From a virus (lineage: Duplodnaviria; Caudoviricetes), in IMG/VR virus record IMGVR_UViG_3300047282_000135, positions 1 to 37,613 of that record: 37,613 bases of DNA. One strand, 5' to 3'. Positions 2,267-22,438 of the stretch are shown here, piece by piece. Under the pieces are notes generated by a model. The model searched no databases. It had not been told where the DNA came from and saw nothing but the letters and a program-made list of their open reading frames with translations. The translations under genes were made by a program, and so were the position numbers. Each line of letters opens with the position of its first letter. The first letter of the stretch is position 1.

Positions 2267-4185
2267 CAGGCCATCCCCAGCTGCCGGCGCACGCTGCCAT
2301 CGCCTGCAATCAGGCTCAGCGTTTGATTAACGCCAGCCTGTACGGCACGGCTGAGATCTTGTGTCGTCACATAATTGCTGCCATTCATCTGCATTACCGG
2401 GCCAGTTTGAATGCTGACATTGGCGCTGCTGGGCACAACCACGCCACCCTCAGCAAAGCGTGGGATAGCGCTTGCGCCACGCTTGCCGGCCATCCAGTTA
2501 GCGGCGAATCCGCTGGCCTTGGATTGCGGCACGATGTATTCCGGCTCGCCGCCCTCACCCACCATGGCGATGGTCGGGCCACTGACAACGCCACCCTCAG
2601 CAAATCGAGGTAACTTGACCGGGCTAACCTTCGGGATGCTGACGCCAGGTACGCGGTTGGCCGCGGCGATCAGTGCATTGATTGCGCCTACAGCACCATT
2701 GATGCCGCCTTCAATCGCGCCCATGATGCCGTTCAGCGCACCCTTCACTACGCCAAGGGCAGCGGTGAATGGAGCCGAGATGATCTGCTGCATCCCGGCC
2801 CATGCGTTTTTGATGAAGTCGATTGATTGCGTGAATGCATTTTGAATAGGCGCGATGAAGTTTTCCTGAATCCATTGCCAGCCCTGCTCGAATGGCTGTT
2901 TGATGAAGTCAAAGATTCCAATCCAAGTGCTGACGTACCAATCAACAATCTTCTGGCCAAGCTCGATAACAGGAGTTAGAAAGTTTTCATTGAGCCAGTC
3001 CCATGCCTTCATGAATGGGTCTTTGACATAATCAAAGATCACCACCCATCCATCGACGAACCATTGCGTCAATTGCTTGAACGCATCAATGACAGGTTGA
3101 ACAAAAATACTGAAAAGGGACTGACCGATTTGACCAATGGTATCGAGTATCCCAGCCACCGCAGATTTGACGCCTTCCCATGCAGCCATGAAGGCTCCCC
3201 CAATCTCATCTCTGAAGTTCCAGATCACCGCAATCAACGCGCCAATAGCAATAGCAATGCCAACCGGGCCGGTGAGCAAGGCAACAATGGCCGTGATTGC
3301 CGGCGCAAGAGTTGTAAACGCTGTGACAACAGCTGCAACCGGTACGGCGATGGCGGCTAATGGAATAGCTACGGCCGCAAAACCAGTCGCCAAATCCTTA
3401 ACAGGCTGCGGGAGGTCCATAAACCACTTGGCGAAACCACCGATGGCCTCAGCCATTTGCGTGATCAAAGGCAGCACAGCAGTCAAAGCCTCGTTGAACG
3501 GACCTTGCAAACTTCTGCCGACTTCATTGATCGTGTCGTTGAGCTTGTCGGCGTTCTGGGCCATTTCCGTATCAATAGTCGCGGCGTACTGGCTCAAAGC
3601 ATCTTTGCCTTCACTCAACATCGGAATCAGATTCACGCCTGATTTGCCAAATAGATCCATTGCCAACGCGGTCTTTTTCGCGGGATCTTCCATCTTTGAC
3701 ATCTTGTCAGCAATGTCGACCATGATTTGATCGACGCCGCGGATCTTGCCTTGCGCATCCGTTGAGCTGACCCCAATCGATCTCAGCGCTTCGCTTGCTT
3801 TTGACGCAGGATCAACAATGCCTTTTTGTAGCTTGCTCATGGCCTTGGCAACTTCTTCAACGCTGCTGCCACTGTCTTGAGCTGCTGCGCCAAACTTGCT
3901 GAGGTTCTCAACGCTTACGCCAGTGCGCTGGCTGAGATCGTTCAGGTTATCAGCCGCATCAATGGCCCGCTTGCCAAGCACGGCCAATCCGCCAATAGCT
4001 GCCGTACCCAATCCGGCAAGCAATGTGGCCGTGCTTTTTGCGATCCCACCAAGTTTCTGAAATGATCCGCCAAGTCCACCAGCTTGTTTGTCGGCAGCGT
4101 CAAGCGAACGAGTCAAGCCATCAATCTGACTAAGACCGTCAACCTTGGCCCTGATCGTCAGGGCGGTTGTCATGTCCAGCGCCAT
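2266..4185 (-). CDS. Tail tape measure protein
   Basis: 639 aa, Ala/Gly-rich and helical, with a hydrophobic central segment, periodic Trp/Phe and duplicated PRFAEGGVV motifs. It follows the tail chaperones. Confidence 0.93.
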   Translation of the reverse strand: MALDMTTALTIRAKVDGLSQIDGLTRSLDAADKQAGGLGGSFQKLGGIAKSTATLLAGLGTAAIGGLAVLGKRAIDAADNLNDLSQRTGVSVENLSKFGAAAQDSGSSVEEVAKAMSKLQKGIVDPASKASEALRSIGVSSTDAQGKIRGVDQIMVDIADKMSKMEDPAKKTALAMDLFGKSGVNLIPMLSEGKDALSQYAATIDTEMAQNADKLNDTINEVGRSLQGPFNEALTAVLPLITQMAEAIGGFAKWFMDLPQPVKDLATGFAAVAIPLAAIAVPVAAVVTAFTTLAPAITAIVALLTGPVGIAIAIGALIAVIWNFRDEIGGAFMAAWEGVKSAVAGILDTIGQIGQSLFSIFVQPVIDAFKQLTQWFVDGWVVIFDYVKDPFMKAWDWLNENFLTPVIELGQKIVDWYVSTWIGIFDFIKQPFEQGWQWIQENFIAPIQNAFTQSIDFIKNAWAGMQQIISAPFTAALGVVKGALNGIMGAIEGGINGAVGAINALIAAANRVPGVSIPKVSPVKLPRFAEGGVVSGPTIAMVGEGGEPEYIVPQSKASGFAANWMAGKRGASAIPRFAEGGVVVPSSANVSIQTGPVMQMNGSNYVTTQDLSRAVQAGVNQTLSLIAGDGSVRRQLGMA

Positions 4186-17626: not shown

Positions 17627-17986
17627 CTAGGAGTCGCAGGAGATTATTTGCGACGCATCTGCGACTGAGCGAGCAATTCCTGCGATGCCACCAGCGCCTG
17701 TCACAGCGGTGAGCCATGCGTGCTGCTCGGGGCGGATGCGGCCATGCTCTGTCTTCACCTCGATGCTGGTGAACACGGCGAGGCGCTGGCCCACCATGTC
17801 GGGGGTGATGGTGATGGTGCGCCAGCCGATCAGATCTGCAGAGCCACGTGCTAGGCCAAACTGCACGGGGCGGCCGGTGCGTGGATCTGGCAGGCTGCCG
17901 CAGTTGTTCCTAAACAGCCTCAGGCCTGGCTTTGTGCCCAAAGCCAGACGGATTTCCTGTTGGAGGTGCGTCTCACTAGCCGACAT
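17627..17986 (-). CDS. VRR-NUC domain nuclease
   Basis: SETHLQQEI, RNNCG, GSADLIG, IEVKT, RPEQ and GGIAGIARS. Confidence 0.9.
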   Translation of the reverse strand: MSASETHLQQEIRLALGTKPGLRLFRNNCGSLPDPRTGRPVQFGLARGSADLIGWRTITITPDMVGQRLAVFTSIEVKTEHGRIRPEQHAWLTAVTGAGGIAGIARSVADASQIISCDS

Positions 17987-18590
17987 TCATTGCCTTGAGG
18001 TGCTTACGCACAGTGTGGCGCGGCACACCTAACAGCTCGCTCCACTCCGTAACGGTCAGACGCTTGCCGTCGTGATCGATGTAGACGCAGCAACGGCGAT
18101 TATTTTGCTGCTCTTTCCTAGTTGCCCACCGGCAGTTGCTTGGTGCGTAGCCGTTGTCGTTATCGATGCGGTCAATCGTCAGACCTTCTGAATAGCCGCT
18201 GGTATTTGCCCATGCCTTGAAGTTGCGGTAGTCGCGCCACTCCGCGCATACATGAATACCTCTGCCGCCATAGTTTGCAAACGCACGATGGTTTGGGTTG
18301 TGGCACCTCCGGACCATCGAATCCCAGACGCGATAAAGCTTGCTGTGGCAGTCTGAGTGCTTGGTGTGTCGGCCACGAAGGCATCCACATGCCAGCTGCT
18401 TGCCGGTGCGTTCGTAAAGGCGGCTTTTTCTGATCACGGTCACGTTGCCGCAGTCGCACTGACAGCGAACCATTTGGTAGCGGTGGCCAGCCGAAGCGTC
18501 AGCCAAAACAGTCAGAAGACCGAAGCGCTGGCCGAGCAGCTCAGCAGGTATGGGATTTGGCACGGAGCAAGATAGGATAGCTGTTCCCAT
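17976..18590 (-). CDS. HNH homing-endonuclease-like protein
   Basis: GQRFGLLTV, CQCDCG, YGGRGI and TIDRIDNDNGYAPSNCRWAT. Confidence 0.88.
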   Translation of the reverse strand: MGTAILSCSVPNPIPAELLGQRFGLLTVLADASAGHRYQMVRCQCDCGNVTVIRKSRLYERTGKQLACGCLRGRHTKHSDCHSKLYRVWDSMVRRCHNPNHRAFANYGGRGIHVCAEWRDYRNFKAWANTSGYSEGLTIDRIDNDNGYAPSNCRWATRKEQQNNRRCCVYIDHDGKRLTVTEWSELLGVPRHTVRKHLKAMNVG

Positions 18591-18608: not shown

Positions 18609-19967
18609 TTATTGCCGGCCACGCGCATAGAGCACATGCTTAGCCCAGCCAACTGGGTTCTTCATTCCACGGGCTTGGCCGAGGTGGATCAGCTCTTGCA
18701 ATGTGCGCGCTTGGCCTTGCTCACGGCGTGCGGTGCGTTGCTCGGTGCGCTTCAGCTCCTGCAGTTCTCCTGCGATTTGACGGATGACGCGCGATTTAAT
18801 CGGCTGGCATTGTGCGCCACAGACCGGGCAAATCGGCGCCGGCTTGAACGCGGCGTAACACTCAGGGCATGTGCGCACTGACGGCGCTGCGGTGCCGCTG
18901 CGCTTCACTGCACCCTCGGCCAGGCTCCACTCGCGCGGATCATCTGGGAATCCATGGCGCGGCACGTTGCCAACGTGATCGAGGATGATTGCGGCATCCT
19001 TGCCTGGCGCTGGGCGCAGCACGCGGCCCACCTGCTGTAGGTAAAGGCCGAGCGATTGCGTGGGCCTGAGTAACACGGCGCAACTGGCGGCGGGCACATC
19101 GAAGCCCTCACTGACCACATCCACGGTCACGAGCACGCGAATCACGCCAGCGGCATATTGCGCCACTACTGCATCACGATCCTGCGTATCGCCCAGCAGC
19201 AGCGCTGCGCCAATCCCGGCTGTCTTAAATGCGTCGCACACTGAGACGGCATGGGCGACATTGCAGCAGAAGGCGATGGCCTGCTGTCCTGCTGCCAGGC
19301 GCTGATAATGCGCGATGGCATCGCCGGTCACTGTGGGTCGATCCATAGCGGCCGCGGCCTGATCGTTGGCGTAGTCGCCGGCTCGCGTGCGGATGCCATT
19401 GAGATCAGCCACTACTGGCGGCGCATAAATCCGTGCAGGCGATAGGAACCCGGCATTGATCAGATCTGCTACTGACGGGCCAAGCACCATGGCATCAAAG
19501 GCGCTGCGCAGTCCCTCGCCCGAGAGGCGGCATGGCGTGGCGGTAACACCCAGCCGGTAGGCATCGGGCCAATGATCGAGGACGCGCGCCCACTGCCCTG
19601 CAGTGGCGTGGTGGGCTTCATCAATAATGATCAGCCCCGGTTGCCAATCCATGCGGGCCAGCCTGCGGGCGAGCGTTTGCACGGATGCGATCTGTACCGG
19701 TGCATCTGTAGCAGGCACACCAGCGGCGATGATGCCGTGTTGAAGGCCGATCCATTGGAGCTTGCTGCTGGCCTGGTGGATCAGCTCACGGCGATGCACC
19801 AGGATCAGCACGCGGTTGCCTTTTGCTGCAGCGCTGGCGGCGATGGTGGAGAAGACGATGGTTTTGCCGCCGCCGGTCGGCAGCACTAGCAGCGGTGCGC
19901 GGGCGCCAGAGCGGTAGGCATCGCGCAGATCATCAATGGCGCGCTGCTGGTAGGGGCGGAGGTGCAT
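18609..19967 (-). CDS. Superfamily 2 helicase (RadD/YejH-like) with C-terminal Zn finger
   Basis: LRPYQ, PTGGGKT, DEAHH, TATP, EGFD, QQVGRVLR and CPEC/CPVC. The likely start is the ATG at 19967. Confidence 0.93.
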   Translation of the reverse strand: MHLRPYQQRAIDDLRDAYRSGARAPLLVLPTGGGKTIVFSTIAASAAAKGNRVLILVHRRELIHQASSKLQWIGLQHGIIAAGVPATDAPVQIASVQTLARRLARMDWQPGLIIIDEAHHATAGQWARVLDHWPDAYRLGVTATPCRLSGEGLRSAFDAMVLGPSVADLINAGFLSPARIYAPPVVADLNGIRTRAGDYANDQAAAAMDRPTVTGDAIAHYQRLAAGQQAIAFCCNVAHAVSVCDAFKTAGIGAALLLGDTQDRDAVVAQYAAGVIRVLVTVDVVSEGFDVPAASCAVLLRPTQSLGLYLQQVGRVLRPAPGKDAAIILDHVGNVPRHGFPDDPREWSLAEGAVKRSGTAAPSVRTCPECYAAFKPAPICPVCGAQCQPIKSRVIRQIAGELQELKRTEQRTARREQGQARTLQELIHLGQARGMKNPVGWAKHVLYARGRQ

Positions 19968-19970
19968 GGG

Positions 19971-20101
19971 GTTGCGGCCCCGGTTGCCCAGGGCCTCGGT
20001 GGTTGGCGGTGATGCGCGGCATAGTGCGATGCGGAGACTCACTGGGAATTGAGCTGCTCAGCGGGTTAACGCGGGGCGACGCAGAATGGCAGGCACAGCC
20101 C
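19971..20101 (-). ncRNA. Pentamer-array ncRNA unit C (putative guide RNA)
   Basis: 17 or more pentamers at 20007-20091 (plus-strand consensus M-R-N-N-G). On the minus strand they are followed by CGCCAACCACCGA, hairpin GGCCCTGG-GCAA-CCGGGGCC and GCAAC. Confidence 0.75.
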
Positions 20102-20131
20102 ACCAGATAGCCGATAGCTAAGTGTTGGGTT

Positions 20132-20240
20132 GTTGCGTGGCCCCGAAGGGCCACTCGGTGGTTGGCGACGAGCGGCACAGCGCTACTACGCAGATCAGGG
20201 CAAAGAGCAGCGCTAAACTGATATGCAGAGAGCCGAATGT
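20132..20240 (-). ncRNA. Pentamer-array ncRNA unit B (putative guide RNA)
   Basis: 14 pentamers at 20166-20235, followed on the minus strand by CGCCAACCACCGA, hairpin GTGGCCC-TTCG-GGGCCAC and GCAAC. Confidence 0.75.
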
Positions 20241-20270
20241 GGGCCTTACACCTAACGGATGCCCAGATCA

Positions 20271-20774
20271 TCAGCCCTCTAGTTGCGGTGGCTTTTTACC
20301 TGCACGTTTGAGCAATCTGAGCTGACGTTGTGCGCCTTGTGCTGATGCAGCGATGAATGAATGCACGTTGATGCGATTCTGATGTTCGCGGCGTGCAGCA
20401 CCTGTCAGCTTGCTGTCATCAATCGAGCTAACCAATCTGCTGGTAGCGCGTTGATGGCGGCGAAGCCCTTGAAATGCCTGATCATTCAGATAGGCAGATG
20501 CGTTCTCATCGGTCAGGACATTGATTACGCCTCCGACGGTGTTCATCACCAAGGGCGGGAGTTCCTTTTCGCGTCGATCACGCTCCAGCCAATCACGCAC
20601 CTGAAGCAGCACATACGGCAGTTTGGCTAGCTTGACTAACTCTTCATCACCGAGTTCATCAATCCAGCTTTGCAATTTATCTGGCTTGCGATTGACATAG
20701 TGCTCCCATGCCAGTTCTGCTGGGATTGTCTGGCCCTTGTAAAGAGCTGTTGAATCGATGGATGCGCTTTTCAT
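20271..20774 (-). CDS. Accessory protein coupled to the Cas7/RAMP-like gene (function unknown)
   Basis: 167 aa from the ATG at 20774, which overlaps the upstream stop (TGATG). It looks helical and has a basic C-terminus. Confidence 0.75.
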   Translation of the reverse strand: MKSASIDSTALYKGQTIPAELAWEHYVNRKPDKLQSWIDELGDEELVKLAKLPYVLLQVRDWLERDRREKELPPLVMNTVGGVINVLTDENASAYLNDQAFQGLRRHQRATSRLVSSIDDSKLTGAARREHQNRINVHSFIAASAQGAQRQLRLLKRAGKKPPQLEG

Positions 20775-21403
20775 CAGCCGATCTCCACTTCTTCTAGGTG
20801 GGTGACTTGAAAGCGACCGTGCATTGGTCGCCATGTACCAAGTCCCTCAGCAATACCGGCACGGTCAAGGATCTTGGCCAGCGTTTGCGGGTCAATGATC
20901 TCATCATTCACCAGCATGGAATACTTTGCTGCCCAATGCGGGATGCGAACACGAACGGCCATGGTGCCGCGTCCGGTTGGCGCGATTGATAGGAAGCGGG
21001 AGTCTTCATACATGACGGCAGCATCACGCGGTCCGTCGTAGATGAGTTCTGCGTCGCCTTCCACAACGATGGCGCGTTTGGTGTCTTTGCCCAGCTTCCA
21101 TGCGGTTGCACCATCGCGGATGCAGCGCTGCAAGTTTTGCGCGGGCAGGAATGGATCGCGGAAACCTTCAAAGCTGGAATCACCATCCAGTGATGTGCCA
21201 TAAGTGAAGGTGCCCTCTGTGCCCCAATAGCCAGAGAAGAGCCAATGCAAACGGCGCAGCGCGTGCTCGTTGCGGTTCTTCTTCATGGCGGTGAAGTATT
21301 TGATCGCTGCTGCATGTGGCCCGAGTGGGTCGACTGTGCAGGGATTGGACAGGATGACCGGGCGTGTGCCCTCAAGCGTTAGTTCAAAGCGGCGAAATGC
21401 CAT
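20774..21403 (-). CDS. Cas7/RAMP-like (Vipr-like) RNA-binding protein
   Basis: N-terminal strand FELTLEGTRPVI, central PFLPAQNLQRCI resembling the RAMP P-x-I-P-x-x-x-x-K helix, and C-terminal Gly-rich loop AGIAEGLGTWRPMHGRFQV. Flanked by repeat arrays. The fold is assigned from motifs only. Confidence 0.72.
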   Translation of the reverse strand: MAFRRFELTLEGTRPVILSNPCTVDPLGPHAAAIKYFTAMKKNRNEHALRRLHWLFSGYWGTEGTFTYGTSLDGDSSFEGFRDPFLPAQNLQRCIRDGATAWKLGKDTKRAIVVEGDAELIYDGPRDAAVMYEDSRFLSIAPTGRGTMAVRVRIPHWAAKYSMLVNDEIIDPQTLAKILDRAGIAEGLGTWRPMHGRFQVTHLEEVEIG

Positions 21404-21421
21404 GGATGTCCTCGTGGGTTA

Positions 21422-21545
21422 GTTGCAGGGCCTGAAGCCAGGCCCTTCTGTGGTGTGCGCAGAAATGCGTCAGACGGCAGGAAAAGGCGGCGAATGGCGC
21501 GGCAATGAGCAGCGCATCAGAGCTCCGAAAAGCAGTGACCCGCAA
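21422..21545 (-). ncRNA. Pentamer-array ncRNA unit A (putative guide RNA)
   Basis: 17 pentamers at 21458-21542, followed on the minus strand by CGCACACCACAGA, hairpin AGGGCCTG-GCTT-CAGGCCCT and GCAAC. Confidence 0.75.
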
Positions 21546-21601
21546 ACCATACCAGCATCCGGCCGCATCCGCTAGTATCTGCCTGAAACCCGCTGCAATG
21601 C

Positions 21602-22438
21602 ATGAAAAACACCGACTATCACGCGCATCCGGCAATCTCAAAGTCTCATCTGGATCTCATCGCAAGATCACCGCTGCACTACTGGGCCAGGTATCTGGAC
21701 CCCAAGCGTGTGGCGCCAGAGCCCACCGCAGCCATGCGGCTTGGCACTGCGCTGCATACGCATGTGTTGGAGCTGAGCCGATGGGATGAGGAGATCGCGG
21801 TGGCGCCAGTGTGTGATCGCCGCACCAAGGCCGGCAAAGATGCGTTTGCATCATTCGAGGCCAGCTCAGCTGGCAAGACCGTGATCACCGCCGACGATGC
21901 CGAGGTTGTGATGGCGATGGGCCGTAGCATCATGCGCCATCCCGGTGCGGCCATGCTGCTAGGGCTGCCAGGCAAGGCTGAGACCACGCACATGTGGACA
22001 GACGCCACTTATGGGGTCGACTGCAAGTGTCGTCCTGACTGGCTCACGGATGACGGCAGCATCATGGTTGATCTCAAAACCACCCGCGACGCCAGCCCGC
22101 GTGGTTTCAGGCGAAGCATTGGCGATTACCGCTACCACGTGCAAGCTGGCTGGTACATGCACGGGGTCCAAGCTGCCACCGGCAAGCGCCCCGATCAGTT
22201 CATCTTTATCTGCGTTGAAACGACAGCGCCTTACGCGGTTGCTGTGTACGCCGCCGATGCCGAGATGATCGAGCGCGGTTATGAACAGGCAATGTTTGAT
22301 TTGGGCAAGCTGGCCACCTGCCGCGCTGCTGACAGCTGGCCCAGCTATAGCGACCAGATCGAAACCATCAGCCTGCCGAGTTGGATGACGGCCGCCACCA
22401 GCCAGCAGCAGGCCACAACCGAAATCGAGACCTATTAA
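21602..22438 (+). CDS. RecE/exonuclease VIII-like PD-(D/E)XK nuclease
   Basis: YHAHPAISKSHLD, GTALHTHVLE, KCRPD, VDLKTT and YHVQAGWY. Confidence 0.9.
   Translation: MKNTDYHAHPAISKSHLDLIARSPLHYWARYLDPKRVAPEPTAAMRLGTALHTHVLELSRWDEEIAVAPVCDRRTKAGKDAFASFEASSAGKTVITADDAEVVMAMGRSIMRHPGAAMLLGLPGKAETTHMWTDATYGVDCKCRPDWLTDDGSIMVDLKTTRDASPRGFRRSIGDYRYHVQAGWYMHGVQAATGKRPDQFIFICVETTAPYAVAVYAADAEMIERGYEQAMFDLGKLATCRAADSWPSYSDQIETISLPSWMTAATSQQQATTEIETY

Follow-up and report, generated by a model that had tools for sequence, protein, structure and literature searches.

Covarying hairpins as probable guide-RNA 3' tails at a variant VIPR locus of a likely cyanobacterial phage

Three short hairpins on the minus strand of a 37.6-kb viral sequence (hereafter the window, i.e. 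the whole stretch of DNA that was analysed) are probably the 3' tails of VIPR guide RNAs, where they would cap the filament of Vipr proteins and likely protect the RNA end against exonucleolytic trimming in the 3'-to-5' direction. VIPR, reported in 2026, is related to CRISPR and silences DNA under RNA guidance; its guide RNA carries an invariable structured 3' tail (10.64898/2026.04.26.720920). In SUSP1 VIPR the tail is a pseudoknot that was seen by cryo-EM to cap the 3' end of the filament, and the tail-proximal subunits are ordered first (10.64898/2026.04.26.720927, accessible part). A preliminary description of the window had placed three hairpins at minus-strand positions 21422-21459, 20132-20167 and 19971-20008, where all three strings are indeed present, and had read them as the 3' handles of arrays that resemble guides and lie next to a Cas7-like gene. 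That reading stands, although the system itself was not recognised as VIPR; the suggestion of a filament-capping or stability signal fits what the accessible part of the structural report says of the SUSP1 pseudoknot.

As a virus record the window is complete and bears terminal repeats, and its genes include terminase, a lambda-type portal, capsid, tail, RecE/RecT-like, helicase and primase genes (Pfam, PHROG). Its exonuclease is closest to those of Synechococcus phages S-CBS1, S-H1 and KBS-S-2A (47–49%), which points to a cyanobacterial host; the window is thus likely a cyanobacterial phage. The locus runs along the minus strand in the order guide A, tail A, vipr, a 167-aa gene, leader alpha, guide B, tail B, linker beta, guide C, tail C and a helicase gene. 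An extended -10-like box read from the sequence just upstream of guide A (21546..21554) is the putative operon promoter; similar boxes precede the first guides of several relatives, and a sigma-70 consensus scan, which requires a -35 box, gave no match. The repeat tract of guide A (21450..21534) consists of 17 pentamers, each a fixed triplet plus a variable dinucleotide (NN), the last unit being ACCAC. It leads into tail A (21422..21449), composed of AGA, an 8-bp stem-loop (21446-21427) and GCAAC, for which an A·G mismatch and a G-C pair at the base of the stem are predicted. Next come vipr (20774..21403), predicted to encode a stand-alone RAMP of 209 aa, and the vap-like accessory gene of 167 aa (20271..20774), which is syntenic in relatives and the start of which overlaps the vipr stop. 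Leader alpha (20238..20267; a stem, a fixed internal loop and a small stem-loop) lies directly before guide B (20158..20237; 16 pentamers), which has an orthologous guide in one relative (L024), and tail B (20132..20157) is made of CGA, a 7-bp stem with a UUCG loop (20154-20137) and GCAAC. Linker beta (20087..20129), a two-stem hairpin of which 45 copies were aligned, separates tail B from guide C (19999..20088; 18 pentamers), which ends in tail C (19971..19998), i.e. CGA, an 8-bp stem with a GCAA loop (19995-19976) and GCAAC. The SF2 helicase gene (18609..19967) is the first of the downstream replication genes on the same strand. Further downstream of the VIPR locus, an HNH endonuclease gene (17976-18590, minus strand) sits between the helicase and VRR-NUC genes.

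The 209-aa product is Vipr by homology and predicted fold. It shares 24.9% identity with SUSP1 Vipr over 209 columns (BLAST E 1.7e-17), a profile built from 38 homologues matched SUSP1 Vipr at E 1.4e-30, and its structural model (pLDDT 89.7) gave 66 matches with E-values of 0.001 or lower, to Cas7-type chains such as Csm3 and Cmr. The protein was assigned to PHROG 4652, had no Pfam match and aligned with proteins in 130 annotated phage records; no Vipr relatives were found in GTDB genomes. The 167-aa product had no Pfam or PHROG match, fell in an unnamed viral cluster and showed no similarity to SUSP1 Vap1 (BLAST E 6.4). The closest annotated Vipr homologue, from Gordonia phage Trine (35%), has no obvious pentamer tract within 100 nt upstream (L352 1393-1497).

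Loci of relatives with at least 55% identity yielded 211 tract-plus-tail units, of which 121 were distinct. Across these distinct units the first three pentamer positions carried 0.93, 1.02 and 1.50 bits of information and the last two 0.01 and 0.03 bits, i.e. the three fixed and two hypervariable bases of a VIPR tract. Units -3 to -10 counted from the tail read C (76%), G (80%) and C (92%), followed by two near-random positions, and the triplet CGC occurred in 587 of 968 units compared to 8 for GGC. Unit -2 was mostly CGC-AM and unit -1 was NNC-AM. The repeat is therefore CGC/NN rather than the canonical GGY/NN. The methods of the discovery paper admit an alternative repeat, YNNNG (10.64898/2026.04.26.720920), with which CGC/NN agrees since it becomes CNNCG in that paper's register. 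Further VIPR repeats (GAC/NN, CAC/NN, WGT/NN and TGH/NN) are given in the accessible part of a later report (10.64898/2026.10.21.760802); the CGC triplet is not named in the text of that part, and figures S17 and S10 of the VIPR preprints may already hold this clade. Literature searches on VIPR with cyanophage and on cyanophage processing hairpins or structured RNAs returned no account of the clade or its tail, and preprint supplements may list the clade.

The change in triplet is matched by a change in the protein. SUSP1 Vipr reads GGY through H17 and D177 at G1, R138 and W178 at G2, and R179 at Y3 (10.64898/2026.04.26.720927, accessible part). In a 15-protein alignment, R138, W178 and R179 were conserved as R151, W191 and R192 of the window Vipr, while H17 and D177 were replaced by S19 and T190. 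The H/D pair was kept in SUSP1, Trine and four cyanophage proteins encoded beside GGY arrays (a fifth is truncated), and Pseudomonas phage Medea1 had H/E. The S/T pair was found in the window and in four of six other CGC-type proteins, the aligner giving G/T for L207 and S/A for L124. As these proteins form one clade, the replacement was probably a single event.

Guides shared with relatives differed more in the triplet than in the NN string. Guide A and its counterpart in L001, which has an identical Vipr, showed nine triplet and two NN differences over 11 units, and guide B and its counterpart in L024 six and two over 10 units. If a 1-nt skip applies, the NN changes would be first-position synonymous changes in Arg or Leu codons, a hint drawn from two pairs only. 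A strict 10-nt period present in guides A and B was not general in relatives. Among loci with Vipr proteins 97–100% identical to that of the window (L001, L024 and L080, compared with window 19999-20237), some guides were wholly different and some the same, with tails and linkers unchanged; guides thus appear to be replaced as blocks.

A loose pattern, ACCAC-N-GA-N(10-30)-GCAAC, had exactly three matches on both window strands combined, each folding into a stem of 7–8 bp. Folding z-scores against dinucleotide shuffles were -2.6, -2.2 and -2.2 on the minus strand and -1.3, -0.8 and +0.6 on the plus strand, which supports the minus-strand RNA orientation proposed earlier. When ends of relatives' tracts were chosen by sequence alone, 115 of 120 had a stem of at least 6 bp at -8 kcal/mol or better beginning no more than 5 nt past the tract end. 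This test is lax, as 1523 of 3600 shuffles also passed; the real tract ends had a median z-score of -2.8, with 88 below -2. The five ends that failed comprised two 5-bp stems, two extended stems starting earlier and one apparent false anchor. The tails show the conserved 3' structure expected of VIPR.

Although the tails are conserved in form, their stems are free in sequence. The 121 tails contained 62 different stems of 6–10 bp and 46 loops, with a G-U pair in 28 of the 62 stems. Covariation was assessed on 17 ungapped tails (15 from relatives, with an 8-bp stem, 4-nt loop and 3-nt gap, plus tails A and C), all of them chosen as perfect hairpins and related by descent; within this set, all eight stem pairs showed two-sided changes (34 cells), which was reached by none of 500 shuffles. 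The earlier observation that stems vary yet keep pairing is borne out. These data largely refute the idea that the hairpins resemble one another merely through recent duplication of array units, without function. Some homogenisation is indicated by GCAAC, which is common to the three copies here and follows only 13 of the 121 tails overall, but copies within one genome have different stems that still pair, and the stable loops are strand-biased (UUCG in 27 tails and its reverse complement, CGAA, in none; GNRA loops in 17). We regard functionless duplication as almost certainly wrong.

What is fixed is the geometry around the stem. The distance from the last repeat unit to the stem was 2 or 3 nt in 119 of 121 tails, and the bases flanking the stem were A and G in 59 and G and A in 51, so that a mismatch closed the stem in 110. 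The orientation of this mismatch was tied to the gap: G stood at +1 in 58 of 62 tails with a 3-nt gap, where the stem is flanked by A and G, compared to 2 of 57 with a 2-nt gap, where it is flanked by G and A (51 of 57). Both gap lengths occurred together in 8 of 58 loci. The A·G/G·A pairing geometry of the closing mismatch is inferred. C occupied position +2 past the stem in 83% of tails, and in the window form, NGA-stem-GC, the GC of GCAAC can add a G-C pair outside the mismatch, which would explain those two bases. The preliminary description had taken the flanks, ACCAC and GCAAC, for conserved elements. All three copies in the window have them, but GCAAC does not extend across the clade as an element, and ACCAC is no separate motif, being the last repeat unit of the tract, the last two pentamers of which make up the 5' flank. 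The guide end consists of a tract with its last two units fixed, a gap of 2–3 nt, a 6–10 bp stem of free sequence and a closing A·G/G·A mismatch.

The pairing of tail with vipr was also examined in 1.2 Mb of fetched phage DNA, a sample in which VIPR phages are enriched and which does not represent viromes at large. Its 26 tract-plus-hairpin units all lay at VIPR loci (22 within 2.5 kb of vipr and four with vipr across a region or contig edge). Away from vipr, an anchor plus hairpin without a called tract was seen eight times among 1,523 anchors, and in one of these cases the tail was real but its tract degenerate.

Alternatively, the hairpins might act mainly on the next gene, as pause sites, factor-dependent terminators or ribosome-loading structures. 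A vipr ribosome-binding site follows 33 of the 121 tails, an ATG lies within 30 nt after 20, and the helicase gene starts 8 nt past stem C. Yet what comes after 48 of the 121 tails is a beta or gamma linker leading to a further guide rather than a gene, and the position of the stem is fixed relative to the last repeat unit and not to a start codon. No U-tract terminator was found on the minus strand between 19800 and 21800, and only 3 of 121 homologous tails had four or more T within the next 8 nt; the hairpins accordingly lack the U-tract of intrinsic terminators, as had been stated before. Overall, a primary role in expression of the next gene seems very unlikely.

The tail hairpin could also be a cleavage signal, cut at its base by a nuclease (a host RNase or Vap) in a Cas6-like manner. 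Internal guides must be freed from a longer transcript, and the base of the helix is constrained by the closing mismatch and the C at +2. Stem and loop, in contrast, are free to vary, no Cas6-like family was found among the ORFs scanned by Pfam and PHROG, and the other side of each junction has conserved stem-loops of its own. Because the stem and loop vary so freely and separate conserved stem-loops precede internal guides, a processing role points away from the tail, and we consider a cleavage signal unlikely, if less so than a next-gene role.

Upstream of the 121 guides, beta was found before 32, alpha before 30 and gamma before 9, with none of these patterns before 49 and a contig end before one. 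Most of the 49 unmatched guides came first in their locus, with a promoter-like box ahead of them, and others were variants that the patterns missed. In the beta alignment (45 of 50 listed copies; L068, which runs off its contig, and four more were left out), 92.6% of cells were paired and 7 of 12 pairs showed two-sided changes, compared to none of 500 shuffles. The GGTGGG strand of beta has a C-rich partner on its upstream and another on its downstream side, so that two folds may alternate; the pair counts cover the upstream pairing. Exact matches to alpha were found at 54 IMG/VR loci, 33 with vipr (of GGY and CGC types) and 21 with no vipr detected. The latter copies mostly preceded a start codon by 9–57 nt or else stood ahead of an apparent tRNA gene, and one was a truncated VIPR locus; copies without VIPR ahead of phage start codons or an apparent tRNA gene include those at L203, L206, L209, L215, L217, L237, L240 and L241. 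We thus view alpha as a putative general cyanophage RNA boundary element, for which annotated phages gave no match beyond chance. A gamma linker with a fixed GCAYGA loop was seen between guides of relatives (L025 at about 3760-3800, L047, L048, L061, L107, L228 and L230), including the distant clade. A scan of 19500-22000 against Rfam gave one chance-level match (sR10, 17 bits against a cut-off of 45), with alpha and beta unmatched; a hammerhead or other Rfam identity of the linkers was rejected, as no curated covariance model matched. The alpha, beta and gamma stem-loops are better candidates than the tails for guide release and 5' end formation.

With the tail as a filament cap, the following sequence of events may be proposed. 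A single transcript would start at the promoter above guide A and, by way of vipr, vap, guide B and guide C, reach into the helicase gene. Host endonucleases would cut the A/C-rich single strand past each stem and exonucleases would trim back to the stem, which is plausible since cyanobacteria have RNase E, J, III, II/R and PNPase (PMC10989914, accessible part). The 5' ends would be set by the start site for guide A and by the alpha and beta stem-loops for guides B and C. By inference from SUSP1 VIPR, each pentamer would be bound by one Vipr protomer, the NN pairs would pass over every third base in reading DNA, and binding would silence transcription. Looked at for RNA, three runs from the same study gave no coverage of the locus.

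No target was identified for any guide. Exact 10-unit gapped patterns of guides A and B had no match in IMG/VR, 8-unit cores had 19 (B), 15 (A) and 23 (C) loci with none extending beyond chance, and guide A with three mismatches matched none of 36 phage records. Local scans of 1.6 and 4.6 Mb on both strands showed no clear skip-1 excess, and with skips of 0–2 no target of guides A, B or C passed shuffled controls. For 79 guides of relatives, 8 reached 85% or more at skip 1 compared to 2 when shuffled, with no significant target. The best lead is a resemblance of guide A, with a 1-nt skip, to phage sigma-70 genes in their region 2 (L124; S-CBS1 gp27) at 23 of 32 nt, a score that 8 of 60 shuffles reached and that falls below the published 80% rule and is not significant. 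The resemblance of guide A 21455-21534 (minus strand) to L124 4621-4668 and L350 20409-21299 was 22–23 of 32 nt, and the window itself had no match to sigma-70 region 2. At the protein level the sigma factor comparison gave 22 of 28 (0 of 40 shuffles), a test chosen after the fact and not counted. A bolder scenario would combine these observations: a re-coded CGC/NN branch with an S19/T190 Vipr, in which guides are freed by uncatalogued self-processing alpha, beta and gamma RNAs, also used before cyanophage mRNAs and tRNAs, and in which the sigma-factor genes silenced by guide A belong to rival phages or to the host. Taken as a whole this is improbable, somewhat more so than tail cleavage.

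By protein, repeat logic and tail the locus is best classed as VIPR, as a variant of the published system and not a new one. Like SUSP1 type II VIPR, it has a stand-alone Vipr RAMP with a single accessory gene, an upstream guide followed after the genes by a downstream array, pentamers of three fixed and two free bases, a structured 3' tail and the R138/W178/R179 residues. It differs in the CGC triplet, in S19/T190, in a plain hairpin tail closed by A·G/G·A instead of a pseudoknot, in an accessory protein unrelated by BLAST and in the conserved alpha, beta and gamma stem-loops before internal guides; neither a vap1-family gene, by BLAST, nor the pseudoknot tail of the SUSP1 type II clade was found, and the locus is likened to type II here rather than assigned to it. 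Its tracts of 16–18 units compare with 9–16 in published VIPR. Arrays of types I and V have hammerheads between guides (10.64898/2026.04.26.720920). The window locus shares with these the presence of structured RNA elements between guides, but alpha and beta have no Rfam match and lack the hammerhead core order. In Class 1 CRISPR, the 3' repeat handle of the crRNA is a Cas6-cut stem-loop that terminates the RAMP filament. The tails resemble such a handle in ending a RAMP filament with a stem-loop, but stem sequence is not conserved between copies and the window has neither a cas operon nor a CRISPR array (no cas families among 21 ORFs by Pfam and 18 by PHROG; no CRISPR-period repeat).

The tail suggests what a guide end needs in place of a pseudoknot, namely a short GC-rich stem of any sequence, set 2–3 nt past two fixed units and closed by A·G/G·A, which can be applied directly in designing compact synthetic guides. 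The CGC code and the matching two-residue change suggest a Vipr that would not load GGY guides and could be of use for orthogonal silencing and for testing the published G1 contacts. Excision of guides from the operon is not addressed in the accessible parts of the published VIPR papers, and alpha and beta offer a testable handle on it.

Hairpin tails are not peculiar to the CGC clade, as Medea1 combines GGY repeats with a plain hairpin tail. More distant relatives (40–47% identity) kept C-rich triplets but had a different tail, pseudoknot-like by inspection; downstream of vap, this clade (L085, L102, L147, L213, L228 and L251) has long arrays with a predicted H-type pseudoknot tail. Canonical GGY VIPR also occurs in related phages (L201, L208, L211, L223, L234, L239, L242 and L245), which share leader alpha and have long bulged hairpins as tails.
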